Assembly: GCA_000004985.1 (NCBI GenBank)
Contig: GG738847.1
Length of the DNA stretch: 64,000 bases
Direction: 5' to 3' (one strand)
Source of the DNA: Naegleria gruberi
Lineage: Eukaryota
Under the pieces are notes generated by a model, which was given only the letters and a program-made list of their open reading frames with translations, made no database searches and was not told the origin of the DNA. Both the position numbers and the translations under genes were made by a program. Every line of letters starts with the position of its first letter. Position 1 is the first letter of the stretch. Positions 13,901-36,992 of this stretch are shown in pieces.

Positions 13901-14332
13901 ACTAGTAGTATTTCAAGTGAATTGCTAGAACAAGAGGAATTAGTCAGTAGAATTGAGAGAATTGAAAATCTCTCCTCTGTTGTAGAAGAAACAAATAACA
14001 ATATAACTGAAGAACCAGTTTATACGAATGATACAAGCACTACTGAAGAACAAGAGGCTATCCTTCTTCAGGTTGATAAAATCAAATCCATTCTTGAAGA
14101 ATTTGATAATAATTGGACACCAGTATACGAATTTGAGAAGGAAAGAAGAAAAGCCTTGAAGGAACTCTTAGATCTCGAAGAAGATGTTTCCATCATGCAA
14201 GAGTATGCAACTGAATTGTCGCACCTAGAGAAGAGAGCAAAAACCTATTTGAAATTTAAGCGGGAAGAACTTCCAAAGCTTTTGAGTCAATTACATGATT
14301 GTCTACATTCTGTGTTGCCGCTTTCTGAATAA
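10950..14332 (+). CDS. Sfi1-like centrin-binding repeat protein, 5 exons
   Basis: Exons are approximately 10950..12057, 12102..12526, 12573..12734, 12772..12867 and 12908..14332. Introns are 44, 46, 37 and 40 nt with GTTAGT, GTATGT or GTAAGT donors and CTAAC/CTAAT branches. The spliced frame is continuous. The protein has about 23-33-residue repeats ending in a conserved Trp followed by basic residues: HWKWFARKG, FQHWKRRKEERD, FNQWLTQLE, FWQSRKQKQ, FGYWKM, FSQWKEKL, AFRHWK, LKSWKDYQNYR and FQYWFGIVDD. This resembles Sfi1 repeats. The 37-nt third intron is tentative. Confidence 0.45.
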
Positions 14333-14353: not shown

Positions 14354-16952
14354 ATGCTCAATCAACCACTCAACCCACAAGATTCATTTTTGAGTCGATC
14401 AACCTCGGGTAAAATTATGAGAACGCCAAGTCGATCAAAGAGAACATCAACAACTCCTCTTTCTTCATCAACTAGTACTCCAAGGAGAGGAAATCAAGAG
14501 GCTAAAGGTGCTACATCATCCACAGCTGTTAATATTGTTGCTATTTTGGACAACCCGGCAAGAGATGTAGGCTTTGCTGTTTTCAATATGAGAACGAATT
14601 CAATCTTCCTCACTCAGTACAATGAAGGATCAAGCTACATCAACACTTGTAATATGTTGAAAGTGTATGAACCATCCGAAGTACTTTTTCCTAAATCTTT
14701 GTTTGATTCGAAACTAGCCTCTATCGTCAAGCAAGAATTAGAATCTAATGCTGATAATCAAAATAGTGCTGCAAAGGCTAAGGTAACCTTCATTGCTAGA
14801 AAACTCTTCAATGAGAATAAGGGAGTTGAAATAATAGACACCCTAATGATGGATGATAATGCTTCTATCAAATCCGATACAATTGCCAAATATTTGAGTG
14901 TTAGTTCCCTCTCTGCTGTTGTTCAATATGTTGAATTCATTCAAGAGTTAACATTTCAACCAAGAAGTCTCCGAATTAATTATGTTGCTTGTGATGGACA
15001 TTTAATGCTTGACTCTGCCAGTATTTCTTCCCTTGAAATTGTTAGAAGCCTCAAATATGGAAACTCTCATTGTACACTACTCTCACATATTGATAATACT
15101 AAGACACCAATGGGAAAGAGAATCATTAGATCAAATATTCTTCAACCATTGCTTGATGTTAATTCTCTCAATGCCAGATTAGACAGCACTGAGGAGATAT
15201 TGTCCAAGGAGAAAGAGTTTTTCGAAATTGGAGCTCTCCTTGCAGAGTTTAGTTCCATTGATCTGAGTCATCTATTAACTCAATTCACTCACACCAGAAA
15301 GAATGCGAGAGGTTCTTGCCACACTCTTGTACTCAATATTATTAGCTTGAGGAAGATGTTGAGTAAACTCCCCAAACTAGAAAGTTGCATGAGAGAGTAT
15401 AATACTCCAATCCTCCAAGCAATTTGTAGTGCTCTCAAATTCCCTGAAAATGAATCTCTTCAAGAAGAAATGGACGAGATAATCAATGAGAAAAGCATTC
15501 TTAGTTGTAAAAACAAACAGCAACAAATTATCTTTGCAGTAGCTCCTGAAATTGATGCTCTGTTGGATATTGGAAGAAAGAAATACATTGAGACTGTTGA
15601 AGAAATCCACGAACATCACAAGCATTGCCAATCAGAGGCAGGAATTTCCTCTCTCAAGTTAAAATACAATGTAAGAAGAGGATATCATTTTAGCATTGAA
15701 GGTAATTATACATTTCTAAATTGATTCTTAACATTTCAAAGATAAAAATGGAGAGTCACACAAAATGTTCATTCAAAAGTCAAAGAAAGGAAAACAAACT
15801 CACTGCTCCACCCAAGAATTGAACTCCCTTAATGTTAGATTGAAGGAAATTATTGATGAAATCTACCTAATGACAGATTTGGTTGTGAATAGACTTGTAG
15901 AATCCATTAGAAATCATTTGAGTCAACTTTACAAGCTGAGTGAGTCCATTGGATTATTAGATATGCTTTATAGCTTTGCCACCTTAGTTACTCTATCCAA
16001 CAATTACGTGAGACCAGAGTTTTGTAGCGAGGGACCAATAGCCATCAAACAAGGAAGACATCCTGTCATGGAGAAGCAACTTCAAGGCCAATATGTTCCT
16101 AATGATACCTTTATGGCCGAATCATGCAACTTTCAAATAATAACTGGAGCCAACATGAGCGGCAAGAGCACATATCTTAAACAAATAGCCACTATTCAGA
16201 TACTAGCTCAAATTGGAAGCTTTGTTCCATGTGCTTTTTGCAATTTAAGAATTTGTGATAGAGTATTCACCAGAATTGGTAATAATGATAGTATTGAGAG
16301 CAATAGCAGTACATTCATGGTAGAAATGGTATGTTACCAATTGTTTTAAACTTTTAAATCTTATCTATCATTTAGAAAGAGGTAACCAATATTGTTCAAA
16401 ATGCAACAAACAAAAGTCTAATAATTATTGACGAACTAGGAAGAAGTTCAAGTAATATTGAGGGAACTTCAATTGCTTGGAGTATTGCAGAACATTTGAG
16501 TGTAAGTTTTACAAATTCAGCTTCATTCTTAGTTATTAAATTAGTCAATCAGAGCCTATTCTCTCTTTGCAACACATTACACAGAATTGAGTGATTTGGA
16601 GAGCTTGTATCCAAATATTAAAAATTCACATCTCAGAGTAACAACCACACAAGACGGTGAATTAAACTACTTGTATCAAATCCAACCTGGTAACTGTAGT
16701 GAAGACAGATATGGTATTAAGCTTGCAAAAATGCTTGGTCTCTCTTCCAAGATTATCACTGAAAGTGAGCATATTCTCGATGAATTACTCCAGCAAAAGC
16801 AAAAACCTCAAAGAAATACTGAGGATATTAAGCAAAGAAAAATAGTATTTAGTATTGCATCTAAATTAATTGCCCATTCTGATGCAGGAATTGACAGTTT
16901 CAAAGAAATAGTACAGAAATTACAATCAACTATAAATGTTCAACAAAATTAG
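14354..16952 (+). CDS. MSH4: MutS homolog, MSH4-like meiotic crossover factor, 4 exons
   Basis: Exons are approximately 14354..15701, 15742..16328, 16376..16501 and 16545..16952. The Walker A is FQIITGANMSGKSTYLKQIA. It has DELGRGTS and FATHYTEL motifs. The N-terminus IVAILDNPARDVGFAVFNMRTNSIFLTQ resembles the MSH4 start ([23 protein letters not shown]) and lacks mismatch-binding domain I. It ends with TAG at 16950-16952. Confidence 0.6.
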
Positions 16953-18662: not shown

Positions 18663-21600
18663 ATGAACGGAGTTGTCGATTCCAAAAATCATCAACATAC
18701 TCTCACCCCTCCATCGACCAATAATAACAATAATACGATCAATAATAATAATAATAATAATGGAAAGAAAAGATCGGATAGTTTAAATAGTACCACTTCA
18801 TCAATTTTATTTGATCATGACAAGCCTAAATTTATTGAATTTACAACAAGTACTCCGAGTGGACCGATTAATATTTCTTCATTCATTTCAAAGATTTTTC
18901 ATAATACAACAACAACAAATCAACAAGCTAATAATACATCATCTAATTTATTAAATAATCATCATAGTAATTTATTAAATTCTGATTTAACTAATGATCA
19001 CTCTGATAATTATTACTTTTATGAAAATCCTACCAATCAAGCAGTTTCACTTTTTGTTAGTGGTAATAAATTGAAATTGAATGAAAATATTAAAATTAAA
19101 CAAAAGATTTTAAATAGAGAAGATATAACTGATACTGAAAATATTGAAGTTAATCAATTACATTTAACAAGAAGAGAGAAACCAACATTACATGCCACTA
19201 GTCATAATAATGCTAATCAACATTTAAATTCTTCTCAAGAATTTCAAAACAAGACACTTGATATTCAACATATTGATAATTTAATTAGTAAGAAGAAGAG
19301 ATCATTCTCAATTACAAAGAATAGCTCAAATGTTATTGAAACTGAAAATGATACTTCCTATTCTGGATTTTCACTTGTTAATAAGAAGGAACTTTTGAAA
19401 ATGGAAAACAGAGTTGATTTACAAGCAAGTAGACATAATAGTACTGATTCTTTACTTTCCAGATCAAAATCACATCCAGAATTGTATAAATTTATAAGTC
19501 AAAACAATAGCTCAGATGAAATTGTAAACTCTGATAATAATAATAATGGATCAGCTCCACAATCACCAAGTAATGCTCTTCAACAACAACAACCTTCATC
19601 TCCAGGTACACCAAATAATCTTCCAAATTCATCATCAACTGGTTCTGGTTTTCAATCAGGTACTGCTGATTCCTATCATTCACCAACAAATGATTCTCAA
19701 AGTATTGGTGTTATGAGTCCTTCCATCATGACATCACCTTCTCATCATTACCATTATCAACAACAATTACATCAAAATCAACAACAACAACAATTCAATT
19801 CCTATTCAACCCCACCTACCACACCCTCACGTGAAAATACCTTTAAACAATTTCTCAGTAATACACTCCAAAAGAAGAATCATTCAAAACAATTTTGGAT
19901 GCCAGATGATCGTGTCACTAATTGTTATGAATGTTTAACACCATTTAGTGTTTTTAAGAGAAAACACCATTGTAGAATTTGTGGACAAATATTTTGTTGG
20001 AAATGTTCTGATTATTTCATTGATGGTAAAAAGTTTGGTTTATCCTCTAAAGTTAGAGTTTGCATTTATTGTTACAATTTAATGAAGAAAGATAGTGGTG
20101 ATTCTAATTTAACTGATTATCCTAATCAATCAAATAAGATTGTTGACACGACTGTTGCTTCATCCGGTTCAAATTTACTAAATTCTCAAAGAACAACATT
20201 TTCATCCATGTTTACATCGAGTGTTGCTGAGGATTTTGATGCATCACAACAATTTAATGATCCAATTGATGAGGAGGGAGATCGAGTGGATGGTCTTTCC
20301 AATTTAATGGATGGAATGGATGGTGGAGCTGGTGCTGGTGGTGCCAATTCTGCTGAGGAAGATTCAGAAGATTCAGAGGATGAAATGATTTATCAACATC
20401 CTCAAGCAACTACCACTATTTTTGATGATAATATGGCTAATTCTGACATGTTTAATGGAAATGCTCAACAAACTGTTGATAATGAAACAGTTCCATTCAA
20501 AATTATTTCAGGAGAAGAATTTGAACAAGGTTTTGATGAACATTTGAATTCCATTGAAGAATCATCACAAGTACATTTGAAGAATATTGTTCTCCAATTA
20601 ATTCAGAAAGAAAATGAGCAACATAATCAAATTATTGATAAGAAATGGGAAGAAGTTATTGTTGGTCTTGCTTTAAGAACTGTTAACACTGTAAATCCAA
20701 ATATGATAAGGGGTGATAAGATGGATATTACCAATTATGTTAAAATCAAAAAAGTATTGGGAAGTAATTTATCGAAGAGTGAATACATTGATGGAGGTGT
20801 TGTTTTTACAAAGAATATTATTCACAAAAAGATGAGAAATAATTTAACCAATCCAAAACTCTTAATGTTAACCTGTCCAATTTCATATCAATATCACAAA
20901 GCTGATACATTGATTGCATCGATGGATATTTTAATAAGTCAAGAGGAAGAATTCTTAAAACTTTTAGTTGAAAGAATTGCTGAAAAGAAACCTGATTTGG
21001 TATTGTGTGAGAAATCTGTGAGTAGACATGCTAAGGAATTATTATTAGCGAAGGGAATTTCTGTTGCTGTTAATGTTAAAAGAAGAGTTTTAGAAAGAAT
21101 TTCAAGATGTAGTGGTTATCCAATTCTATCTTCAATTGATGAATACAACTCTGCAACTCATCAACAATTAGAACCATCTCTACAACATGTTAATCATGCC
21201 TATGTTAAAAGAATTGGTGATAAGAATTTGTTTATTATTTGTGGAAGTCAAACAGATGCTCAATGTACCATTGTTTTGAGAGGAGAAAATGAAAAGGAAT
21301 TGGACCTTGTTAAAAAGATTTTCAAGTTTGCTATTTATGTTGCTTACAATCTCAAATTGGAAACTGAATTCTTCTTTGATCAATGTGGTACTTTATTAGA
21401 TACAAACCAAGATGAAGACACAACTAACAAACCATTCATATTATCTGCCTCTCCTCATGTTAAATTCCCATTGAAAATTCAAGATTTGGATTTGGGTAAA
21501 TGGAACATTTCATCAAATTTGATTTTACAAAAGAATCAAGAAGAATGTACAGAATTGGAATCATCAATGTTTGAAAAACTCCTAACACCATATGCTCACC

Positions 21601-24147
21601 AAAACATCATTGTTCTATTCACAAAACATCCTAAAATTGATCCAAAAGTTATTTCCAACATTGAAAATCCATCAATTTCACCTCCAGAAACTATTGTCAT
21701 TGCATATTACACTGAAAATGATATGCCATTAGGAAAGTTTCTTGAACTCAGATGTTTTAATAAGGCCAATTTGGCAAATTATTTGAATACTATCCGAATC
21801 TATACTCATAATGAAGGTAAAATAACTTTAACCATTGAAAAGTCATCAGAAATAATTTCCTCCTCAGATGAAGGTATTGCCATGTGGAATTATTGTAAAA
21901 TTTGTGAAAGACACGTTACACCTGTTATTCCAATGTCCGAAAGTGCCTACAAGTATTCATTTGGTAAATTCCTTGAATCAACATTTTATAATCATTCATT
22001 GAAATGTAGAACAGGAGGTTGTAATCACTCAGTTCATCATGATCATATTAGATATTTTGCCTATAATGATATTATTGCCAAGTTTGAATACAAACCTGTG
22101 AGTGTATATAATTTAGTGTTCCCAGGAAATCAAATTACCTATGATAGTAATCAACAACGTAATCAATTCTTGATTCTTATTCAAAATGTCACTGATGCTT
22201 GTCAGATTTTATTTAATGATTTTAATCAACTCGTAAATGAAATCTCTTGTAATTATTCAGTATTGACACAGGAACAAATCACTCAAGTTACTGAACTTGG
22301 AGAACAAATCAAAACACAACAATCTTCACTGTGGACAACATTAGAAGCCATTTCACAAACCAAAGAAAATATTTACACTTTGAATGATTTTATTAGAAAT
22401 GTTTACATTTCCTCATTGGGATGGAATGATATGATTATTGAAATGTTTTCCAAGTTTGGAATGCTCAAAAACAATGGTAAATCTTCAACCTCAATCAATA
22501 ATAATACTTCATCCATTCCAAATGCATCTTCATTAACTAGTAGTTGTATAAAGAAGAAGGAAACAAAGATTTCTGTTCAATTAACAGTTGATGAAAATAG
22601 AATCAAAGTAATACTTGAAGAGATTGAATGTGGTGTCAATGTACCATTACTTAATTTAGATAATGTTGAAACAATGAGTACAAGTAGTAGTTCAAATGGT
22701 AGTAGTATGGTTAATAGTAATAGTCTTGGTAATTTTACCACTAGTACTGGTTTATCACTTGATACTAAAATTGTTTCTCCGAGAGGAGCTGATACAGATG
22801 GAGAGTTGGTTTCACCAATTTCAACCTCAAGAAAATCATTTAATATTTTCACATTCAAGAATCAAAACAAACAATCTTCAATCTTTGATCAATTACAACT
22901 TAAACCAGTGAAATTACCAAATATTATTGATAATGTTTCAGCTCACATGTTTTTACCATCAGGTTCTAATGATGCCAATGTAATTGTTTACAATGATGAA
23001 CCATCTACTATTATTTCCTATACATTGAGTTCAAATGATTATTACAAATTCCTTCCTTCAAAAGATGATATTGATATTGAATTAGTTTTAAAATCAAAAG
23101 ATAAGAATCACTACAAGTTTTGTAAGTATATTTAACATCAAGTAGTATTAATTATCTACTTAGCATTCTATGATACACCAAATTCAACTTCCAGTAACAA
23201 GGTAACACTTATTAATGGTGCTGAATTACCATCCAATACTGCAATAGCTTCAAATCCAATATCTGCAGGTAGATCTAAGAATAAGACCAAGTTCAGTTGC
23301 ACTTGCTTCTTTTCTAATCAATTTTCTGCTTTAAGAAAAGCCTATTGTAATGGTGATGATTCATTTATTCATTCACTTGCTAGATGTGTCAAGTGGACAC
23401 CAACAGGTGGTAAAAAGGGTTCATTTACCATGTCTTGGGATTCTAGATTTGTGTTAAAAGAAGTTTCCCGAGTTGAATTGTTATCATTCTTAGAAATTGG
23501 ACATTCCTACTTTGAATATGTTGCCAGTTCTTTATATCATGAATTACCAATTGTTTTAGTTAAAATATTGGGAGTTTTTAGATTGAGTTACCATGATAAT
23601 AAGGGTAAACCAATCAAGAAAGATGTGATTGTTATGGATAATTTATTCTACAATAGAAATATATCAAAGAGATTTGATTTGAAAGGTTCTACAAGAAATA
23701 GATATCAAAAAACAGAAGGAGCCACATTGATGGATGAGAATTTACTCGAATGTAAGTTTTAAATTTTCATTTAATTTCTAATAATATGTCAATACAGTTA
23801 TTTGTAATGGATCTCCTCTCATAACAAGAGAAGCATTCAAGTCAATTTTGACAATTAGTGTATTCAATGATACCCTATTCCTTAGCAAGCATAATGTCAT
23901 GGACTATAGTTTACTAGTTGGTATAGATGAAGAGAATGGGGATATTATCCTTGGTATTATTGACTATGTGAGACAATACACGTGGGATAAGCATTTTGAG
24001 ACTTGGGTCAAATCTGCTGGTATTATTAGTAATAAGGGTAAGGTTCCAACTGTTATTTCACCAAAACACTACAAGACAAGATTCAGGGAAGCAATGCAAA
24101 GGTATATTGTTGCTACATGCAGCAAATTAACAGGTTTATTGAGTTAA
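18663..24147 (+). CDS. PIKFYVE: 1-phosphatidylinositol-3-phosphate 5-kinase (FAB1/PIKfyve), 3 exons
   Basis: Exons are approximately 18663..23121, 23164..23751 and 23798..24147, with 42- and 46-nt GTAAGT introns. FYVE finger: RVTNCYECLTPFSVFKRKHHCRICGQIFCWKC. It has a chaperonin-like domain and a cysteine-rich CCR domain (CKICERHV...CNHSVHHDHIRYF). The PIPK catalytic domain has GGKKGSFTMSWDSRFVLKEV and MDYSLLVGIDEENGDIILGIIDYVRQYTWDK. Confidence 0.85.
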
Positions 24148-24232: not shown

Positions 24233-25248
24233 TTAGTACTTACCCTTTGGATGATAATCTATTGAGACAACTGGTGTAGAATCTGAGTCAATCTTTGGTA
24301 TTTTGCAAGATTGCTCATTTTCTAAATTCCATTCAAAAATATTTCCATTCTCATCTCCACTCAACAAATATCTATCATCATTCGAAATAGTATGCTTAAT
24401 TTGATACTTTTCGTTAGTATGTCCTGTTAATGTCCTAAGGATATTCCCACTTTCAATCTCAATCATTAATATTGTAGAATTCAGCAAACTGCAACAATAG
24501 GTCTTGTAATTTTTACTTATTGAAACATGACCAACTGATGCTCCTCCTAAATCGTCCACTTTCAATTTACCCATACGAATGTCATAAATATGAACTGTTC
24601 CATCAACACATCCAGCAATAATACTCGAATCTGAGCTAGTAATACTCGAAACACTATCTTGAAAATCTCCCAAATTTTGCACAGATTTATATGAAGCAGA
24701 TCTGACATCCCATACTTTCAAAGTTCTGTCATATGATCCTGACATGATTATTTCATTATTAAAATTATATTTTACACAATTCACTTTCTATAAAGAATAA
24801 ATTTCCAAATAAAAATCCAAATATATTACATACTCCTTTATGTTCCTTAAATCTCCTCTTCACTTCACCTGTTGAAACATCCCATAAAAATACATTTTTA
24901 TCAGCGCTTGCACTCACAAAATAATTATTATCGTTCGATCTGAAATAAATCATATATTTTACATATTTGAAATCCTATATATTTTACATACATATCAATA
25001 TCAAATACTTCATATCCGTGAGATTTATATTCCTTCAACACAAAAAATGATTTATATGGATTTAATAATTTAATATTCTTATCTGCACCAGCACTCATAC
25101 AATATTGACCATTTCCTTTACTAAATTGACAATGAAGAACAGATCCATTATGTTTCTTTTTTGATATATCCACTCCTGATTGTAATAAATTATTTAAAGA
25201 GCATTCAATTTGATAATTCCGATTATTGGTTGAATTTTGTAGGCTCAT
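24233..25248 (-). CDS. WDR83: WD40 protein WDR83/MORG1-like (MAPK organizer 1), 3 exons
   Basis: Exons are approximately 25248..25002, 24939..24834 and 24787..24233. It is collinear with human WDR83: HCQFSKGNGQYCMSAGADKNIKLLNPYKS...GYEV, SASADKNVFLWDVSTGEVKRRFKEHKG, IMSGSYDRTLKVWDVR, DGTVHIYDIRMGK and LLSGDENGNIFEWNL. Exon coordinates are uncertain by 1-2 nt. My hand reading near 24781 and 24900 did not match the ORF track frame. Confidence 0.65.
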
Positions 25249-25409: not shown

Positions 25410-25937
25410 TTATTCAGTCTTTTTTTCAGCTTGTTTTTCCAATCTTAATGCTCTAATATTTCTCAAATGTACAGCATATAAAGCAAGAGCAATGAAATTA
25501 CCAACGAGAGCAAAATAATAAATCTTATTATGAAGAGATTGTTGAGAGTATGGTTTTAAAACGAGACCAAATAAAATCAACCAAACGGATAGAGCAACAT
25601 GAGTCCACAAGGTTAATGTTCTATTTCTTGTTGCGAAAAAGACAATCAGTAAAATTAGAGCACTTGAAAGTAAAAAGCAAAGAGCAGAGAATTGATATTG
25701 TGCTGTAAGTAATTGTTTAACAATTTGTGAAGCTTGTTTTGGATCGGAGAAGGAATCTGATTTTAATGATGATAAAAATTGATCCATAGATAAATTTGAA
25801 GAACCTAATAATGCATTATTACTATTATTATCAATTGTCCAAGGAGCATCATTAACATAATACATCCAACTCAATAAACATCCAATAGCTGCTAATAAAT
25901 AAATAATCAATGATGAAGTAAATGTTAAGAAACGCAT
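25410..25937 (-). CDS. small polytopic membrane protein with about 4 predicted TM helices, unknown function
   Basis: ORF of 175 aa with four hydrophobic stretches: IIYLLAAIGCLLSWMYYV, ALCFLLSSALILLIVFFA, VALSVWLILFGLVL and YYFALVGNFIALALYAV. Confidence 0.4.
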   Translation of the reverse strand: MRFLTFTSSLIIYLLAAIGCLLSWMYYVNDAPWTIDNNSNNALLGSSNLSMDQFLSSLKSDSFSDPKQASQIVKQLLTAQYQFSALCFLLSSALILLIVFFATRNRTLTLWTHVALSVWLILFGLVLKPYSQQSLHNKIYYFALVGNFIALALYAVHLRNIRALRLEKQAEKKTE

Positions 25938-26066: not shown

Positions 26067-27911
26067 TTATTTCTCTGCTACTTTAATAGAAGCACCATTT
26101 TGTACAGTTTGGGATGATACAGGCTTACTACAGGTTGGGTTAGCAATTTGAATATCTCTTCTAACCTTCTTTGCAGCTTCTTCTTGTTCTTCTAACCTTT
26201 CTCTCTTAATCTTGGCAACAATTTCAGCTGTTGTTTCTGTTGGAGATGGTGGTTTATATCTAACTGGATGGAGAACTTTGGTTTCCCTTTGGTAAACCAT
26301 CTTAGTTTGAGGAGATCCAACAGGAGTGATTGGTGTTTGTTCACCAGTACTTGTAGAGCTACTTACAGTTCTACAAGGAGTACCAGTAACAGGTTGAGAT
26401 TCTGCAGGAGAGGTTGAAACAATAACAGGTGTTGATTGAAGCTTTTGTTGTGGTGGCACTGGTTGTGGAGGATAACCCATTTGATGTGGAGGATAAGCCA
26501 TTGGATATCCGTGAGGTGGATATGGGTATGTAGCTTGATCTGGATGTGGTGGGTATGAATAACCAGGTTGAGGAGGATATGGATAAGGTGGAACAGTACC
26601 AGATTGTGGATATGAATATCTGTAATCATAATAGTAAGGAGGAACATAAGGTGGTTGTTGAGGTTGTCCATCTTTAGATTCTGTTGGTTGAGGTGGATAA
26701 GCACCTGGTGGTGGAACAGAAGTTTGAGGTGGATAATACATTGGATATGGAACAGGTTGTGAACCATCATGTGTTGGTGGAGGAACACCATATGGATAAT
26801 GATAACCTGGATGTGGTGGATACATATGAGGATAACCTGGGTGTGGAGGATATGGAGGATATGAATAAGCAGTACCTGTTGTTGGTTGTGGAACTGGTCT
26901 TGGAGGTTGATGAGCAACAACTCCATGAGTAGTTGGTTGTTGTTGGACAGTTGTACTTGTTGTTGTTGGAGCTGAGGTTGAACTAGTTGTGCTTGGAACA
27001 GGTGTAGTAGTTGTTGTAGTATTGGAAGCAGATCTGTTAACATTGTGCAATTTATCCAAAGCTTCAAGTGCCAAAGCTTCTTCACTCTTCATCTTTTGAG
27101 CAACTGGTGATTTACCCTTATTCAATTGGAAACAAGAGAATAATTGATCACCACTTGCTGATGATTCTTCAACTTGTTGTGCTTGTGTATTTTTACCAGA
27201 AGTAATATTACATCTCTTTCTATATGGCCATCTTCTAATACCTAATTCTCTACATCTCTTCTTCAGTGATGATTCATCAACTCTTAAAGCAACGCATGCT
27301 TCATGTAAAGGTAATTTGAAATATTGTGAAATGGAAAGATAACTTAAATTAGCAGCATTATTAACAAAGTAGTCTGATGGTGGTGGACTTCTAAAGCTCT
27401 TGGCAATATGAGGAGTGGAGGAAGATACTTGTGGAGAGAGATGGGCATTAGCAATGGAAGGTATCGATACGATTGGGGTAGGTGTAGTTGGTTGTGGTGG
27501 AATTTGTTGTGGTTGGGTGGTAGATGTGGTTATTGTTGTTGGAATGTGAGAAGTTGGGATGGTTTCAACACGTGTTGTTGAAATGGTAGTTGGTTGTGAA
27601 GGGATTTCTTGTCGAGGTTGAGGTGAATATGATTCAACAGAACTCGATGTAGAGGAGTGATCAACCAATGGTGTAGTATTTCTTGGGATTGGTTCATGTG
27701 TACTAGGATCATAGGTTTGAAGTTTGGCCCACAATGGATCAGCAGCATAATTAGTTGAAATGACGGTTCTCATATTATATTTTGTTATTACATCATTCAT
27801 TCCTAATTCTTCATGTTTCAGAACATCAGTAACGAGGTAGTAAATATTATTTCTACTGATTAAATCTTTACGAACAAAGTTGGTGTTGGTGGTGCCTGTT
27901 GAGTGCATCAT
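26067..27911 (-). CDS. RWP-RK domain transcription-factor-like protein with a long Pro/Tyr-rich low-complexity C-terminal half
   Basis: RWP-RK motif: LSISQYFKLPLHEACVALRVDESSLKKRCRELGIRRWPYRKR. It is followed by about 250 residues of degenerate PPHPGYP, YPPQP and YPYPP repeats. Embedded opposite-strand and alternate-frame ORFs, such as 26363..27085, are artefacts of the repeat. Confidence 0.65.
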   Translation of the reverse strand: MMHSTGTTNTNFVRKDLISRNNIYYLVTDVLKHEELGMNDVITKYNMRTVISTNYAADPLWAKLQTYDPSTHEPIPRNTTPLVDHSSTSSSVESYSPQPRQEIPSQPTTISTTRVETIPTSHIPTTITTSTTQPQQIPPQPTTPTPIVSIPSIANAHLSPQVSSSTPHIAKSFRSPPPSDYFVNNAANLSYLSISQYFKLPLHEACVALRVDESSLKKRCRELGIRRWPYRKRCNITSGKNTQAQQVEESSASGDQLFSCFQLNKGKSPVAQKMKSEEALALEALDKLHNVNRSASNTTTTTTPVPSTTSSTSAPTTTSTTVQQQPTTHGVVAHQPPRPVPQPTTGTAYSYPPYPPHPGYPHMYPPHPGYHYPYGVPPPTHDGSQPVPYPMYYPPQTSVPPPGAYPPQPTESKDGQPQQPPYVPPYYYDYRYSYPQSGTVPPYPYPPQPGYSYPPHPDQATYPYPPHGYPMAYPPHQMGYPPQPVPPQQKLQSTPVIVSTSPAESQPVTGTPCRTVSSSTSTGEQTPITPVGSPQTKMVYQRETKVLHPVRYKPPSPTETTAEIVAKIKRERLEEQEEAAKKVRRDIQIANPTCSKPVSSQTVQNGASIKVAEK

Positions 27912-28464
27912 CTTTGTTGGTTATTGTTTTGTTGTGTTTTTATTTGTTTGTGAGAATTTTGTGTGAGGCTTCTTTGGAAAACTCTAGGCCACAACAAAGC
28001 AGCTAGTTGCGTTGTTTGCGAGATGACTTGTTTGCTTTACTTATTTTGACGTAAGGAATGGAAAATAAAGGGTTAACAAACGAACTTTGAGCCGCTTAAA
28101 CGTCTTTATATTCAAGCGCCCTTTGGACGATGTTTCCAAATATGAATTTTGTAAATTTTTGGGACTGACGGCAAACAACAGACATTGACGAAAACCAACG
28201 AAGGAGGACTCTAATTAGAACGCATGAGAATTAATTTACCATCTATATTAAAACGTATTGTACCGTTTTGTATTTAAAATAATATTCTGGACTTTATTAA
28301 AAGATGCATGAAGAAAATTTGGTCTCTAACTTTTAATCCATCATTCCAGACTGTTGTTAATTCCTCAAATGGTTTTGTGATGAAAATTTTCATTGGATAT
28401 TTTCCAATATAACTGTATTTTACAATGTCTTGCCTTCTTTAACAGAAAGTTTTGAAAACTCAAA

Positions 28465-30711
28465 TTATCCAACCAATTCATCTACAAGATAATCAAAAAT
28501 TGTGTGGGCTGGATTTTTTTTCCCAGTTTGATAATTGCATATTAAAGCGTATAATTCAGAGATTGAAACTTCTAATTGAATCAGTAAACTTTGCATGGCT
28601 TTTAACTTTTTAGCAAGCTCATCATTGTAGTAGGTAAAGTAAATCATTTGGAAATTGTTCATTGATTCTTGTTGGTTGTTGGCAACACTTCCAATACCTA
28701 GAGATGCAACCTTGGAAATACATAAGAACTGACAAAGGAATTTTAAAAAATAATCTCCCTTAAATGCTCCACATCCTTTAAGGTACATGATTAAAGACCA
28801 AATATATAATTGTTTGGTTTTGTTAACAACTTAATTAGGAATACTTTTGTATAAATATCACTTACCTAAATTTCCAGTAGATATAATTTTACAATCACTA
28901 CCAATAAATCCACAATATATCTTGTTGATTTCTCTCTGAATATACTTTGCCTTAAATTGATCGAAAGGACTTCTAAATGGGGCCGAGTTAAAATTTAGGG
29001 CATCAATTGCTATGATTGGATAGTTAATAGTGGAGAAATTTTCACAGTTCTCATCGTAGGTTCCTGTGTATCTATAGGAATAGGAGTATCCTTCATAGGT
29101 TGAGAAGCGTTTTGTGTTCCTTATCAGTAAAGTTTCATTATCGTCTAATTCTTCTGTGAAAAGTCTTCCAATTATACATTCTGTATTGATAAGGAATCTA
29201 ATCTCTTCTTGTACTGCACCATTTCCTAATACGCCTCCACCAAGCATTTTGTTTGCAAAATCGACATGGCAACAATCAAGTGTATGTGGTGAATTATCTT
29301 CAATTGTTCCATTATCTCTGATTTCAATATTAGAAAGCAGCTTTTCGCTGCTATTCTGGAACATCTTGTCCATATCCTTCGAATCATCCAACAGCACTTT
29401 TCTCTCAAAAGATACTTTTTCATCAATTATGGAGTTATTATTTAAAATATATTCGGCCATTAAATTAAAGTAATTGATAACAGTTTTGAGTTTTTCAATG
29501 AGTAAACTTGTTTCTTCAAATTCTTCTTCCTCAAATTTAGATGGACTCAATAAATCTTCATCAAATAATAAATCATCCTCAATTGAAATTGTTTCAGAAA
29601 TAGACAATGTTTTGGTGATTATAACCTCATTAGATGTTGTGGTGGTTTGTGTTGTTGTTGTGGAACTGATAATTGTTGCATCAAGATTTGCATCCATGTG
29701 ATTACTAGATGCAATGGCAGTAGAATCATTTGTTGTTTGAGTTACAATAGAGGAATTCAAATCAGTAGAAGAAGGGATTGATGAACTTGTATCATTTTGT
29801 TGTGGAATTTCTGGAGTATTTTCTGGTGACAAGCTTGGTGATTTAAAAGTGTCTTTTGGATCAACTGGAATATTGAATGGATCCTTTTTGATAACTCTCT
29901 TTGTTAGAGGAGACTTTTTAAATAATGTTATAAAATTGATAGATGGATAGTAATAGTATTCATCTGATGGATTACTCGTTTGATTTCTTCTTGGGAATGT
30001 ACAAAAAAATGCATGTATCAATAGACAACAAATTTGTTTTCTAGTCAAAGTAACTGAACTATCCTCTTGTTTCTTCAAAAGTGGAATTTCGTCAATCAAG
30101 TTTGGTAAATCCAAAGCTAAAGATTGTAAACAAGGTAATGTAGTGTTAAAAAATTGATCCTTATCCTTAGCAGTATAAATATTATTAAATAATGTCTCTA
30201 AAGAATTGAAAGTATTAGAGGAAAAACTCCAACTAGAGTTGACTGTTTTGATAATTTGAATGATGTCATTCACATCAGAAATTCTCTGTTGTAAAACTGT
30301 TTTGATCAAATACCATTTTGACAATTGTCTATTATTTTGAAAGTAAACATTATTTTCATGACAAGGTAATTTGACACAATCTCTATTCCAGCCTGGTGTA
30401 GATTTTCTTCTATTGCTAGTTCTAGGAGGAGTTGAAGGAGGAGGTTGTGCATAATTTTGATTATCATAATTTGGTTGTTTAGAAGCCTTTGTTTTGAAGG
30501 GTGGATTTGAATTTGATGAATGATCATTAAATGATCTTGTTGATGAATTGTCATTTGGTTGAGTTGGTGGTGGATTGTTACGGATTTGTTTTCTTGTCTT
30601 TTCTATCCATGATTCCTCATCTGGTCTCTTTCTTTTGTCATTATTTAAAAAGTCACCCAAAGTTAATTGTTTTTTGTTACCTGTTGATGAAGATCTACCT
30701 TGAGAAGACAT
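28465..30711 (-). CDS. PARG: poly(ADP-ribose) glycohydrolase, 2 exons
   Basis: Exons are approximately 30711..28866 and 28775..28465, with a 90-nt GTAAGT intron. The PARG catalytic signature is VDFANKMLGGGVLGNGAVQEEIRF. The second signature TGNLG/CGAFKGD is split by the intron and is restored in frame after splicing. Confidence 0.8.
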
Positions 30712-31643: not shown

Positions 31644-33119
31644 ATGAGTCAACAACTCAGAAATTTATTGGTGAAGAGAAGAGAGGCCTTTGGCAGTGTT
31701 GCTGGTAATTGTAGGAAGAACCTTGCAATGTTACAGGCAGGGATTCATGGCTCTTATCACAAAAGAATGTCCAATCAGAAACAATTTTTATTGGATTTTA
31801 ATAGAAAATATGAAAGGCAATTTTCCACTTCGGAAATATCATTTGTAGAGTCATGTAAAAAGGAACCAATAAGAATTATTGAGGATATTCCAATGGCTAA
31901 TGAGGAAAAAACAAAAGAATTACTTGATAGATTTGAGAAATATTGTCAAGAAATTGAAAGAAGAGAAAAAAAACCAAGAGGACAAATTAGAATTGTTGTT
32001 GGAATGAGTGGAGGTGTGGATAGTAGTTTAACAGCTTGTTTATTGAAGGAATTTGGATTTGATGTTGTTTCATTGCATATGAGAAATTGGGATAGTTCTG
32101 AAGAGGATCCTTCTAGAGAACATTGTACATTTACCAAGGATTGGAATGATGTAAAAGTTATTTGTGAAACATTTGGTATTAAGCACGTTGGATCATCATT
32201 TCATCCTGTTGAATTTATTGATCAATATTGGAATGACGTTTTTGAGAAATTATTGGATGGATATTCAATAGGCCAAACACCAAATCCTGATTTATTTTGC
32301 AACAAGTTTATCAAATTTGATGCCATGTTAAACTATGCAATTGAGAAAGGAGGAGCAGATTATATTGCAACTGGTCACTACGCTCAATTGGGATATTCTG
32401 ATAATGGAGAAACATCAAATACTCATTTATTACGTGCTATTGATCATTCTAAGGATCAAAGCTATTTTCTTTCTTTTGTTAACAAGAAAGCATTTGAGAA
32501 GAGTCTTTTCCCACTTGGGCAATTTTTAAAGAAAGAAGAGGTTAGAGTTTTAGCCAGAGACCACTTTAAATTCCCAAACGAGCTTTGGGGAAGAAAGGAT
32601 AGTGTTGGTATTTGTTTTATTGGAAAGAGAAAATTCAAAGATTTTCTTTCTAAATATATTGACTCTTCTAAGGGAAATATAGTTTCTATTGAGGATAAAA
32701 CAACAATTCTTGGAGAACACGATGGAGCATCATTTTATACGATAGGACAAGGAATGTGTCTTTCAGGAATGAAAGAAAAATGGTTTGTTTGTGAAAAAGA
32801 CTTTAAGAATAATATTTTATATGTTTGTCCTGGAAATAATCATCCAAGTCTACTTAAATCAAGTTTTACAATTTCAAATTGTCACTGGTTAGAAAATATT
32901 GATAATTCAAAGGAATACTTTGTTAAAGTTAGATATAATCAAAGAGAGCCATTTAGATGTAAAGTATCATATTCAAATGATTCATCTCTTTGTGATATTA
33001 CTTTAGCAGATAGTGAGGAACCTGCAAGAGGTATTGCTTCTGGTCAAATTGCAGTTTTATACGATTCTAATAGTCAATTCTCAGAACAGATTTGTGTTGG
33101 TGGAGGAATTTACATTTGA
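31644..33119 (+). CDS. TRMU: mitochondrial tRNA-specific 2-thiouridylase (MnmA/TRMU/MTU1)
   Basis: PP-loop IVVGMSGGVDSSLTACLL. Conserved CNKFIKFDAMLNYAIEKGGADYIATGHYAQ. The N-terminal extension is consistent with a mitochondrial presequence. It is a single exon. Confidence 0.85.
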   Translation: MSQQLRNLLVKRREAFGSVAGNCRKNLAMLQAGIHGSYHKRMSNQKQFLLDFNRKYERQFSTSEISFVESCKKEPIRIIEDIPMANEEKTKELLDRFEKYCQEIERREKKPRGQIRIVVGMSGGVDSSLTACLLKEFGFDVVSLHMRNWDSSEEDPSREHCTFTKDWNDVKVICETFGIKHVGSSFHPVEFIDQYWNDVFEKLLDGYSIGQTPNPDLFCNKFIKFDAMLNYAIEKGGADYIATGHYAQLGYSDNGETSNTHLLRAIDHSKDQSYFLSFVNKKAFEKSLFPLGQFLKKEEVRVLARDHFKFPNELWGRKDSVGICFIGKRKFKDFLSKYIDSSKGNIVSIEDKTTILGEHDGASFYTIGQGMCLSGMKEKWFVCEKDFKNNILYVCPGNNHPSLLKSSFTISNCHWLENIDNSKEYFVKVRYNQREPFRCKVSYSNDSSLCDITLADSEEPARGIASGQIAVLYDSNSQFSEQICVGGGIYI

Positions 33120-33582: not shown

Positions 33583-36500
33583 TTATTGTTTCTTGAGATC
33601 ACTCTTAATCTTGTCAACAAGGGCTGCCATGGCATCTTCTCCTGAACCAACTGCTGAGATCTTAGCACCTAGACCTTTTGCTGGTTGTTTCTTCTTTTTT
33701 GCTTGTTCTCTCTTTATCTTGTCTAATGACCTCTTAATAATTTCATTAAATAAAAACATGGATCCAAAGAAGTCTTTTGTGTCAACTTTTGCAATATCCT
33801 TATCCTTGAATGAAAGATATTTAAGTAAACTAGTAAAGTTTGTCTTGAATTGTTCAAATCTCTTTTCAATAGTATCACATTCTTGTTTGGCTTTCTTGAA
33901 GAAGGAAGACATTTTCTTTAAAAAGATATCTTCAGCTTCCACTTTTCCTTGAACAGTTTTGATCTTCTTCTTAAAGTCATTCAGATTGTTGACAAGAGAT
34001 TCAACTTGATTTTTCATATCATCCAACGAAAATTCTTTAGACCTAGAAAAAACTTCGAATTCTGTTGTTATTTCTTCAAACTCTGCATCTTTTGGAAGAA
34101 CTTTTTGAACACAAAAATCTGCAAGGTTTCCTTTTGCGTTATCCTTTGTGTCTTCGAGCTTTGATAAGATATCTAATTGAAAACCTTCTGCTTGACCTTT
34201 CTTTGTGCCACCGTTTAAATAGTTACCAACAGCTAGAACAATACCTAAAATGTTCTTGAAATGAGTTGATTCTTTTAGAATTTTAACAGAATTTTCAAAT
34301 GTTTCTAATGGTTTTCCAACAATAAGCAACCCTGTTTCAAATTGTAAAGTATACGTCCAACATCTAATTCTTGTAGCAAATTCTGGTGTGTTAATAATAC
34401 AATACAAATACAACTCTGGATCGGAATATTCCTTCAAGTCTTTTGTTTTGTGAACTTCCTTGAATCCATTGATGGTATCAGCATCAGGCATATTTCCTAG
34501 TAATAATTCTACGTGTTCATAATTTAAAATTGTGCTGTCCAAGTTTAAAACACCTTGCTCAATATGAGAAACTTTTGGCAGTTTTTTCAACATGATAGAG
34601 ATGTTATTAAATGTCTTTTGATCCAACAATGGGACTGATTTTGGTTCTTCCTTTTTTTCTTTCTTTTCTGGAGCTTTTCTTTCCTTCTTTGAAAACATTT
34701 CTTCAAATTCATCAGCATCCAATTCCTGTTCTACCACATTTGTCCAAATTGTATTTTGACTTATGAGGTTAGTTTCCTTATTATTTCACTACTTACATTG
34801 TTGTTGCCTTATCCCATGAAAACATTTTCATCTTTTTCTTTGGCTTAATAACTGGTTTGACAGATGTTGCAGCAGCAGCTCCACATGAAGGGAATCCAGG
34901 TACTTGAGGTACACCAAATCCTGGTGGCATTGGCATTCCACCCATTCCTGGAGGAGGAACAGGCACACCAAATCCAGGAGGCATTGGAACACCCATACCA
35001 GGAGGAGGAGGGACGCCACCCATACCAGGAGGCATTGGAATTCCTGAACTAGGAGGAGGTGGTACACCAACCATACCAGGAGGCATTGGGATAGTAGATC
35101 CAGGAGGAGGAGGAACACTACCCATTATAGGAGGAGGAGGAACACCCATACCAGGAGGCATTGGAATTGAGCTACCAGGAGGAGGAGGAACACCAAAACC
35201 AGGAGGCACTGGAATTACCGATCCTGGTGGAGGAGACATTACTCATTCCTGGAGGCATAGGGATAGTAGATCCAGGAGGAGGAGGAACAGAGCTCATACC
35301 AGGAGGCATTGGTATCGAGCTACCAGGTGGAGGAACACCACCAAAACCGGGTGGGGGAGGTATTACTGAACCAGAAGGAGGAGGAACACCACCAAAACCA
35401 GGAGGCATTGGAATTCCCGATCCTGGTGGAGGAGGAACATTACTCATTCCTGGAGGCATAGGGATATCAGATACTGGTGGAGGAGGAACATTACCGACAG
35501 GTGGAGGAACAGATGTTGGCGGTACTGGAATAGTTGGATTTGACACAGGAGGGACTGATGTTGAAGGAGTTAGAGTTGTCGGTGGAGTATTGTTACTTGA
35601 CTGTGAGACTTGGTCGGCCAACTTTTCTGCATTTTGAATTTGCTGCTCGATTTCCTTCTGAAGATTCAAGTTATTGCTGGTGGCCTCTTTCAAGAGTCTA
35701 TTTGCGTTAGCCACTTCTTTTTTGAGGTTTTCGAGTTGCCTTGTTGCATAGTCAGCTTCTGCAAAACTTCTTGTTCTTTCATTATCTAATTCTAAAGAAA
35801 GTTCATCAATCTTTCTCTTTAAAACTTCAATTTCTTCATCTCTTGGGTCATCTTCTGGAGGCAGAGGCAATTCATCCTCTGAATCACTAGCAAAAAGCTC
35901 ATCAATTTCATCTTTCTTCACTTCTGGTTGTGGAATAATGTCCGCAAAGTTTGGATCCTTTAAAAATTGTTTGGCTAGCTCCTTTCTTGCTTGTTGAAGC
36001 AATTGAAATTGTTCAGTTAATTCAAGATTCTTTCTTTGGAACCTGCTAAGATCAATTACTTTATCTGGGGAGAATTCTAAAACAGCATCAGTATCAAGTC
36101 TTTGAGAAGTACACATTCTATCAGTAAATCCACATTTCATTGAAAAAATGTTTACAGTCTCGTAGCATTTTTGAAGCTCTTGTTTGAGAACTCTAATTGT
36201 GGATTGCTGTCTTTGGAATGCAAATAGTTTTTCTTGTGTTTGTTCATATTTACAAGAAACCTTGTCTAATTCAATCTTCATTTTCTCGCAAACATACCAT
36301 GATCTTGGTATTTCAATCTTCGAGATCTTTTGGAAGATTGATAATTGTTCTTTAACACCAGGAAATTCTGACCTATTGGCAAAATCCAATGTACTTTCCA
36401 GGTCAGCCTTTCTCCACATGAAGAGTAATTTTCTCTTCTTGTCCTCTGAAGACTTTGAAAGTATAACGTTAAGTAATGTCAAGCAATTTACTTGAACAAG

Positions 36501-36992
36501 CAAATCTCCACTCTTCAAAATATCCATTATGTTTTGGAAAGGTTGTTGTTTGCATTTAGTTGCAAGATCTTTTGCTGATCTTTTCACTAATTTAATACCA
36601 TTATCCAAATAACTACAGAAAACAATCATCAATTCTAAAGCATTTTTGTAAATCTGAACATTTTGATATCCACTTGAGGTATCAGTCAAGTTATAAATTT
36701 CTGAAACAGTAGAAGGAGATTGAGAAATTACATCCATGGCAGATACGTAAACTAGGGCACTTCTCAATGCGGCTAAACCATAACCTTGGAGGTTACCTTT
36801 CAGATGTGTAACTTCTTTTGCTAAAATGGCAATACCATTCATAGAAATAAATTCTTCAGAAAAAGTGGTATCTTGCAATGTTTCCTTCAATTGAAACAAT
36901 ATTTTACCCTTTTCAACTCTATCATCCGAGTCAAGAATATTGATATAGTCCCTAGATTTTAATTCAGGTCTTAGTTTTAAATAAGCAGACAT
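33583..36992 (-). CDS. formin (GBD/FH3 - coiled coil - FH1 - FH2 - DAD), with one 37-nt intron and an apparent frameshift in FH1
   Basis: N-terminal GBD/FH3 armadillo region. The FH1 region of about 250 aa has IPMPPGM(S/G)xVPPPPGS repeats. The FH2 core is KPKKKMKMFSWDKA...GNYLNGGTKKGQAEGFQLDILSKLEDTK. The C-terminal DAD is GEDAMAALVDKIKSDLKK. A 37-nt GTAAGT intron lies at about 34796..34760. The frame changes by one nucleotide near 35236-35245 between ORF 35172..36992 and ORF 34793..35239, with no intron signals. Confidence 0.8.
34860..35600. repeat. tandem coding repeat (FH1 poly-proline units of about 48 nt) inside the formin gene
   Basis: About 15 imperfect DNA repeats of the form ccaggaggcattgg...ggaggaggaacacc. 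The mirror-frame ORFs 34828..35118, 34864..35052 and 35161..35637 are repeat artefacts. Confidence 0.7.

Follow-up and report, generated by a model that had tools for sequence, protein, structure and literature searches.

An RWP-RK protein of Naegleria gruberi with a tyrosine- and proline-rich disordered region, a putative member of a heterolobosean subfamily

In this study, we analysed the gene NAEGRDRAFT_78055 of Naegleria gruberi, a heterolobosean amoeboflagellate (Discoba). The gene lies on the minus strand of a 64,000-nucleotide stretch of contig GG738847.1 (assembly GCA_000004985.1), which is referred to as the window. Judged by its sequence, NAEGRDRAFT_78055 encodes a bona fide member of the RWP-RK family with an intact DNA-binding signature. 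We consider it quite probable that the product is an RWP-RK factor of a heterolobosean subfamily, in which a helical DNA-binding module is combined with the short motif LFSCFQL, a disordered effector region, and C-terminal motifs together with a charged helix. Both the gene and the family are already known: the gene model, annotated with RWP-RK, is deposited in NCBI and UniProt, and it has been published that the family is expanded in Naegleria. What we add here is a definition of the subfamily by its extended domain, the LFSCFQL motif and the C-terminal motifs. Moreover, we describe a tyrosine- and proline-rich region whose length swings from 0 to about 670 amino acids (aa) while its composition rules are kept, and an intron inside the RWP-RK motif which appears to have been lost in N. 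gruberi.

The RWP-RK domain of NAEGRDRAFT_78055

The open reading frame (ORF) runs uninterrupted from ATG to stop in a single exon and encodes 614 aa; the coordinates of the coding sequence and of all further features are collected in the table. Its product corresponds to a 'predicted protein [Naegleria gruberi]' in NCBI with 100% identity over 100% of the length (EFC49747.1, XP_002682491.1, UniProt D2V0M2), and the PF02042 annotation of this protein was present in the database beforehand. No mention of the identifiers of the gene was found in the literature searched.

A scan against Pfam-A identified RWP-RK (PF02042) with E=4e-16 and 59.1 bits, well above the gathering cut-off of 29.3 bits, the match covering positions 2-45 of the 49 positions of the profile. 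Neither PB1 nor any other Pfam family was detected in the 614-aa protein at E<=0.1. An earlier sequence-only reading of this DNA, made without database searches, had taken the gene for an RWP-RK domain protein on account of the string LKKRCRELGIRRWPYRKR; the profile match bears this out, and the string is located at aa 216-233 exactly as quoted, with the RWPYRK motif itself at aa 227-232. In alignments with 24 and with 45 other RWP-RK proteins, 17 of the 17 invariant columns of the family are present (F198, P201, A205, L209, L216, K217, K218, R219, C220, R221, L223, I225, R227, W228, P229, R231 and K232). An exhaustive HMMER search of 1.84 billion representative sequences yielded 541 matches at E<=1e-3, 15 of them at E<=1e-10, all via aa ~180-240. 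This search was used instead of a full-length word-index search, whose 8000 candidates were mostly low-complexity noise and gave 4 matches.

Structure prediction of the full-length protein by AlphaFold2 (AF2), using an alignment of 25 sequences, gave confident structure in two places only, aa 179-222 and aa 561-590. The former consists of four short helices with a predicted local distance difference test score (pLDDT) of 90-96, followed by the RWPYRK segment; the latter is a long charged helix (pLDDT 90-95). The rest of the protein, the first 170 residues and the tyrosine- and proline-rich region included, reaches block values of ~33-58. A folded N-terminal domain in aa 1-75 was considered and ruled out by a pLDDT below 50 and a lack of conservation. 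Foldseek searches with the predicted model gave weak matches of 31-36 columns with a root-mean-square deviation of ~1.9 A, nearly all of them to helix-turn-helix DNA-binding domains (RpiR, FIS, NtrC, sigma region 4 and Lrp families). For the protein encoded by NAEGRDRAFT_78055 we infer the role of a nuclear, sequence-specific DNA-binding transcription factor.

Concerning known RWP-RK proteins, the best named matches outside the Heterolobosea are plant RKD-like proteins with ~47-60% identity over the ~50-aa domain, the top one being an 'RKD1-like' protein of Diospyros. Like plant RKD and the MID proteins of Chlamydomonas and Volvox, the N. gruberi protein carries one canonical RWPxRK domain and lacks PB1. 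Past the domain there is no similarity to these proteins; only the heterolobosean group has LFSCFQL, the Tyr/Pro region and the C-terminal motifs. NLP/NIN proteins and Chlamydomonas NIT2, which act in the nitrate response, also have an RWP-RK DNA-binding domain. The N. gruberi protein is not NLP-like, because PB1 and a folded N-terminal sensor domain are both absent, the N-terminus being predicted to be disordered.

Orthologues and the provisional heterolobosean subfamily

By size, RWP-RK ranks third among the DNA-binding-domain families catalogued as transcription factors in Naegleria: N. gruberi has 39 such genes and each of three Naegleria fowleri strains has 26-27 (Herman et al. 2021, PMC8296547, Table S3). 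The family is also abundant in stramenopiles (PMC7399023). The presence of the domain in Naegleria is thus unsurprising, since the expansion of the family has already been published. The lineage restriction to plants, algae and Amoebozoa assumed in the sequence-only reading does not agree with these reports, nor with the source organism, which is neither plant, alga nor amoebozoan. Among ~96 RWP-RK rows of N. fowleri (three strains, isoforms included), the string 'RWPYRK' occurs 16 times, and many Naegleria paralogues carry degenerate motifs (e.g. ...MEKWPSY, ...GRWPYQC). NAEGRDRAFT_78055 therefore belongs to a canonical-motif minority of, by a rough count, five genes per genome.

The N. fowleri orthologue is Nfowleri986_g4161, Nfowleri30863_g4168 and NfowleriV212_g877 in the three strains. 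Its domain string AANLSYSAIAQYFRLPLHEACVFLHVDESSLKKRCRELGIRRWPYRKRGI differs from that of the window at 8 of 50 positions and lies at aa 179-228, close to aa 186-235 in N. gruberi; in addition, Msh4 is five genes away. The V212_g877 model has its RWP-RK domain at aa 561-610 as compared to aa 179-228 in the other two strains; probably this model is fused to the upstream gene for poly(ADP-ribose) glycohydrolase (PARG), which would make it an annotation artefact. Orthology to V212_g4821, an RWP-RK gene reported to be up-regulated in mouse-passaged N. fowleri, was ruled out, as the domain sequence differs.

Positional orthologues were found at three loci, namely L001 of Willaertia magna, L003, and P0002/L002, an environmental contig with a Naegleria-like orthologue. 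The gene order at L001 (formin, tRNA methyltransferase, PARG, RWP-RK, then, further on, a small transmembrane (TM) protein and WD40) matches the window, and L003 retains the order PARG, RWP-RK, TM protein. The domain encoded at L003 and the N. fowleri domain string match at every position. When the N. gruberi protein is aligned with P0002 and with the spliced product of L003 (1065 aa), several conserved blocks emerge. The first of these, IAKSF[RK]SPPPSD[YF]FVN.AANLSY...RRWPYRKR, extends the Pfam domain. It is followed by an acidic stretch leading into LFSCFQL, by a short E-A-[LV]-A-x-E-x-L segment, by a partly conserved tyrosine core YVPP(G)YYYD(P)YR and, towards the C-terminus, by PCR, [KR]M[VI]Y[QE]R..K[VI][LI][HQ]PV and KR[ED]RxEE. 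The interval between LFSCFQL and PCR is unalignable. It is shortest in N. gruberi (248 aa), of intermediate length in P0002 (388 aa) and longest in the N. fowleri-like L003 (672 aa). Its composition is steady across the three proteins: proline makes up 18-25% and tyrosine 6-11%, there are ~20-24 charged residues, and tyrosine accounts for 28/28, 36/36 and 42/48 of the aromatic residues, respectively. The annotated Willaertia orthologue of 137 aa ends after the domain and LFSCFQL; it has no low-complexity region, and there is no space for one before the next gene. Across the syntenic orthologues, the length of the low-complexity stretch thus ranges from 0 (Willaertia) to ~670 aa.

A common layout is found in 11 of the 11 relatives examined, i.e. 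N. gruberi, P0002, L003, P0003, P0048-51, P0053, P0060 and P0062, which is annotated in Acrasis kona as an 'RWP-RK domain protein'. A domain of the AANLSY..I.QYF.LPLHEA type is followed, 23-96 aa past the WP motif, by [LMF]F.[CT]F..[LV] and by a disordered region rich in proline, glutamine, serine and tyrosine; the [LMF]F.[CT]F..[LV]-type motif is also kept in Willaertia. We provisionally propose that this layout defines a heterolobosean RWP-RK subfamily, of which the N. gruberi protein is so far the most proline- and tyrosine-rich member.

An intron is located inside the signature motif of some orthologues. It is a phase-2 intron at the same spot, between GI[RK]R and WPYRKR, in L003 (3001..3270, 270 nt) and in L001 (6192..6250, 59 nt), and it is missing from N. 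gruberi (window 27225..27240) and from P0002. As it is shared by Willaertia and L003 and absent from N. gruberi and P0002, this pattern indicates a loss of the intron in the N. gruberi lineage. The N. gruberi copy differs from the N. fowleri one in the absence of the phase-2 intron and in a much shorter disordered interval, as compared with the N. fowleri-like L003.

The tyrosine- and proline-rich region and its possible role

The tyrosine- and proline-rich region (P/Y region; aa 335-490, 156 aa) contains 33% proline and 18% tyrosine. All of its aromatic residues (28/28) are tyrosines, one per ~5.6 residues, and only 9 residues are charged. Glutamine and asparagine together contribute 9.6%, glycine 7% (11/156) and serine ~6% (over aa 346-500). 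The Shannon entropy is 3.03 bits vs 4.07 bits for the domain region, and pLDDT is ~45-55. The recurring motifs are YPP (10 occurrences), YPPxP (7), PxPGY (3) and PPYP (2); in addition there is one canonical PPxY (aa 424) and one PPYP-x-YP (aa 352-361). YP dipeptides occur 17 times as compared to 9.9 +/- 2.3 in composition-preserving shuffles (p=0.002). The P/Y region is real and non-random. As a disordered, Tyr/Pro-rich region it is of an ordinary type, common in transcription factors.

The sequence-only reading had described a long aromatic low-complexity tail of about 250 residues right after the domain. Its disordered, tyrosine-rich and low-charge character is confirmed; its extent and position have to be corrected. 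By sliding-window composition the dense Pro/Tyr zone spans ~135-155 aa, and 248 aa is the length of the whole disordered interval from LFSCFQL to PCR. The P/Y region starts ~100 aa past the RWP-RK domain, beyond LFSCFQL and a Thr/Ser-rich linker. It is internal rather than a tail, as ~125 residues lie downstream, including conserved motifs and the predicted helix.

The same reading had compared the region to the C-terminal domain (CTD) of RNA polymerase II and to prion-like domains such as that of FUS. With the CTD it has in common that it is disordered and rich in tyrosine and proline. However, neither a heptad array nor a YSPTSPS consensus was found in the P/Y region by Tandem Repeats Finder (TRF) and by the spacing of tyrosines. 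TRF detected only imperfect DNA units of 21 and 30 nt in 2.1-2.2 copies with 82-84% match, and the distance from tyrosine to tyrosine varies irregularly between 1 and 17 residues; because of this irregular spacing and the two-copy, imperfect units, a CTD-like heptad array is dismissed. Concerning the likeness to FUS, the region shows the disorder, the low charge and the distributed aromatic residues of a low-complexity domain. Its composition is proline-dominated (33%) and not dominated by glutamine, asparagine, glycine or serine, as a prion-like composition would be, and a proline content of this order disfavours cross-beta assembly. The tyrosine-sticker, low-charge logic of the comparison therefore stands, and the prion-like part of it does not. 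The P/Y region resembles the QPGY domain of SS18 and the FET proteins (FUS, EWS, TAF15) in its disorder, in its low charge, in tyrosine as the sole aromatic sticker and in being tied to a chromatin- or DNA-targeting module; it differs in its spacers, which are rich in proline and not in glutamine, glycine or serine, and there is no sequence homology. In SS18, the tyrosine residues of QPGY drive self-association and phase separation, and both are abolished by Tyr-to-Ser substitution (PMC9117659). Tyrosine richness and low charge make condensate or activation behaviour of the P/Y region plausible. Given the nuclear-type DNA-binding architecture, an extensin-like or secreted, hydroxyproline-rich protein is unlikely.

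In the reading that we favour, the RWP-RK module (aa ~169-235) would read a DNA element. The Tyr/Pro disordered region, probably together with the acidic-hydrophobic LFSCFQL segment, would be the activating or cofactor-recruiting part of the protein and could recruit cofactors via many weak tyrosine-mediated contacts, as in SS18 QPGY. The charged C-terminal helix may provide self-association. We infer in this way that the protein binds DNA, is active in the nucleus, has an activating or condensate-forming role, may dimerise and would control some process. Weighing against this reading are the dispensability of the low-complexity region in at least one lineage (Willaertia magna, with 137 aa annotated), its 2.7-fold variation in length within Naegleria, which fits weak constraint, and its proline content, which is unlike that of the well-studied FUS-type regions.

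Several alternatives have to be weighed. That the repeat region is an artefact of assembly or annotation, with collapsed or expanded units or two genes fused, is hardly credible. Low-complexity DNA may be misassembled, and the displaced domain in V212_g877 suggests that model fusions occur in the family. However, TRF revealed no long perfect tandem array, and two other species conserve the motifs past the region in frame. Moreover, a metagenome assembly made independently (L005, ERZ929261) contains a 616-aa version of the 614-aa N. gruberi protein; this version is 99% identical and has a QQ insertion in a short polyglutamine (polyQ) tract and two substitutions. The P/Y region has the same length in both, and so the artefact objection, which the sequence-only reading had itself raised, fails. 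The coding DNA of the two differs by 4 substituted codons and one indel of 2 codons (QQ); with only 2 synonymous and 2 non-synonymous differences, the ratio of non-synonymous to synonymous rates in the low-complexity region is uninformative. The main alternative, which we regard as unlikely though a serious contender, is that the P/Y region is mostly neutral, slippage-prone filler, a flexible link that joins the DNA-binding module to the conserved C-terminal motifs and has no specific role in activation or condensation. The changing length of the LFSCFQL-to-PCR interval in N. gruberi, P0002 and L003, the absence of the region from the positional orthologue of Willaertia, a conservation limited to composition and one short core, and the polyQ indel between the two N. 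gruberi assemblies all fit with it. Yet the composition rules hold despite the change in length, tyrosine being the near-sole aromatic and the number of charged residues roughly constant; YP adjacency is above the expectation from composition; the tyrosine core is recognisable in three orthologues; and more remote relatives, among them Acrasis kona, also carry P/Q/S/Y-rich regions past the motif. It is rather improbable that the P/Y region offers short linear motifs as docking sites for proline-recognising modules (WW or SH3 domains, or penta-EF-hand proteins with ALG-2-type binding of PPYP...YP and PxPGF/Y) and in this way governs turnover or localisation of the factor, in place of collective multivalent contacts. 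In favour of docking are pattern matches, namely the PPxY, PPYP, PPYP-x-YP, PxPGY and YPPxP motifs counted above, and a resemblance, presumably, to the GYPP-rich N-termini of annexins A7 and A11 and to the proline-rich region of ALIX, which we take as a lead and not as a test. However, just one of the matches is a canonical PPxY, the orthologue alignment shows no conservation of where the motifs lie, and proteins known to bind such motifs work chiefly in the cytoplasm or at membranes.

The minimal RWP-RK factors of the MID and RKD type specify gamete or egg-cell identity in green algae and plants. The canonical motif of NAEGRDRAFT_78055, its lack of PB1 and its best named non-heterolobosean match, a plant 'RKD1-like' protein, are what would be expected if the gene, in the manner of MID/RKD, controlled a cryptic programme of sex or meiosis and were functionally coupled to a nearby MSH4 gene. 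The MutS-family gene of the window, ~9.7 kb from the RWP-RK gene, is very probably MSH4, because its set of MutS domains lacks domain I, which is the pattern to be expected of an MSH4 or MSH5 protein, and because of the gene numbering in N. fowleri. Homology searches with it returned matches without MSH4 or MSH5 names, the matches in the PDB being weak (MSH3, MSH2, MSH6). In N. fowleri, Msh4 is Nfowleri986_g4166 and NfowleriV212_g872 (Herman et al. Table S2, PMC8296547). It is five gene numbers away from the RWP-RK orthologue in both strains (g4166/g4161 in 986, g872/g877 in V212); the spacing in the window is equal, so that the linkage is kept between N. gruberi and N. fowleri. The neighbouring MSH4 pointed out by the sequence-only reading is thus very probably there. 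However, the linkage carries no functional information, as it belongs to a more extended syntenic block whose genes are unrelated, among them PARG, the tRNA methyltransferase and the formin. Five unrelated genes separate the RWP-RK gene from MSH4, with the TM protein, the WD40-like gene, the FYVE/Cpn60_TCP1 gene, a mitochondrial carrier and one more, unassigned ORF region in between. In eukaryotes, a proximity of 10 kb is not evidence of co-regulation. Moreover, the Willaertia locus as retrieved (L001) does not contain MSH4, and the gene is one of 39 paralogues. We therefore regard a sexual regulator coupled to MSH4 as very improbable. The bolder version, in which the orthogroup is the heterolobosean counterpart of MID/RKD, switches on a never-observed Naegleria sex and has independently evolved a proline-spaced tyrosine-sticker, condensate-forming activation domain, is a long shot of the same order. 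The roles in nitrogen responses and gametogenesis named in the sequence-only reading are extrapolated from plants and algae. The gene is a reasonable candidate for the control of Naegleria differentiation or of cryptic sex, as are the other canonical-motif members of the genome, about five in all; nothing singles it out.

Features of the locus and neighbouring genes

Among the genes surrounding NAEGRDRAFT_78055 in the window, the formin, the tRNA methyltransferase, PARG and the FYVE/Cpn60_TCP1 gene are ordinary housekeeping genes; the neighbours are listed in the table together with the features of the protein.

Table. Coordinates of NAEGRDRAFT_78055, of the features of its product and of neighbouring genes in the window
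Feature	Position in window	Strand	Basis or remark
Complete coding sequence, NAEGRDRAFT_78055, 614 aa + stop	26067..27911	-	ORF list and identity to NCBI protein
N-terminal region, aa 1-168, S/T/P-rich, predicted disordered, unconserved	27408..27911	-	composition, pLDDT <50, three-orthologue alignment
Extended conserved DNA-binding block, aa 169-234 (IAKSFRSPPPSDYFVN...RRWPYRKR)	27210..27407	-	Pfam, invariant columns, AF2, near-identity in orthologues
Pfam RWP-RK match, aa 189-232	27216..27347	-	E=4e-16
LFSCFQL motif, aa 257-263, with acidic/Ser stretch before it; subfamily signature	27123..27143	-	motif comparison across relatives
Thr/Ser-rich linker, aa 291-334, with short polyQ variable (QQQ vs QQQQQ) between two N. 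gruberi assemblies	26910..27041	-	composition, L005
Pro/Tyr-rich region, aa 335-490; Tyr-bearing core aa 348-480; partly conserved core PYVPPYYYDYRYSYP	26442..26909	-	composition, AF2, TRF, alignment
Conserved C-terminal motifs, aa 512-550: PCR (512-514), KMVYQRETKVLHPV (537-550)	26262..26378	-	kept in P0002 and spliced L003
Predicted long charged helix, aa 561-590 (TAEIVAKIKRERLEEQEEAAKKVRRDIQIA), holds conserved KRERxEE	26142..26231	-	AF2; KR[ED]RxEE in orthologues
FHOD-type formin	35172..36992	-	neighbour; order kept in Willaertia
MnmA-type tRNA methyltransferase (tRNA_Me_trans)	31644..33119	+	neighbour; order kept in Willaertia
Poly(ADP-ribose) glycohydrolase (PARG)	28858..30711	-	neighbour; order kept in Willaertia
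Small TM protein	25410..25937		neighbour
WD40-like gene	24233..25248		neighbour
FYVE + Cpn60_TCP1 (PIKfyve-like) gene	18663..23135	+	neighbour
MutS-family ORFs	14354..15724 and 15765..16349	+	MutS domains II, III, IV and V, without domain I

Neither a second RWP-RK gene nor a further P/Y-rich ORF was found elsewhere in the 64-kb window. The distance from the start codon of the RWP-RK gene to the stop codon of PARG (window 27912..28857) is ~950 bp vs ~425 bp in Willaertia, and a 107-aa ORF (28465..28788, minus strand) lies between these two genes. In Willaertia, a 278-aa ORF rich in lysine and glutamate (L001 6606..7442, minus strand) is located between the genes for the RWP-RK and the small TM protein, where Naegleria is intergenic, and a TPR-rich gene (L001 8567..9784, minus strand) lies near it. 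The plus-strand ORF at window 12965..14332 (455 aa, TTG start, no Pfam match) immediately precedes the MutS ORF and may be either a gene of its own or a part of the MutS gene model.

The G+C content (GC) of the window is ~32%. Between 26001 and 28000 it rises to a peak of 0.384 vs ~0.31, with a GC skew of +0.335, and two spurious ORFs in alternative frames (26363..27085, minus strand, and 26684..26932, plus strand) overlap the gene. The peak, the skew and the alternative-frame ORFs at 26-28 kb are explained by the bias towards Pro, Tyr and Thr codons in the low-complexity region, read from the other strand or in another frame.

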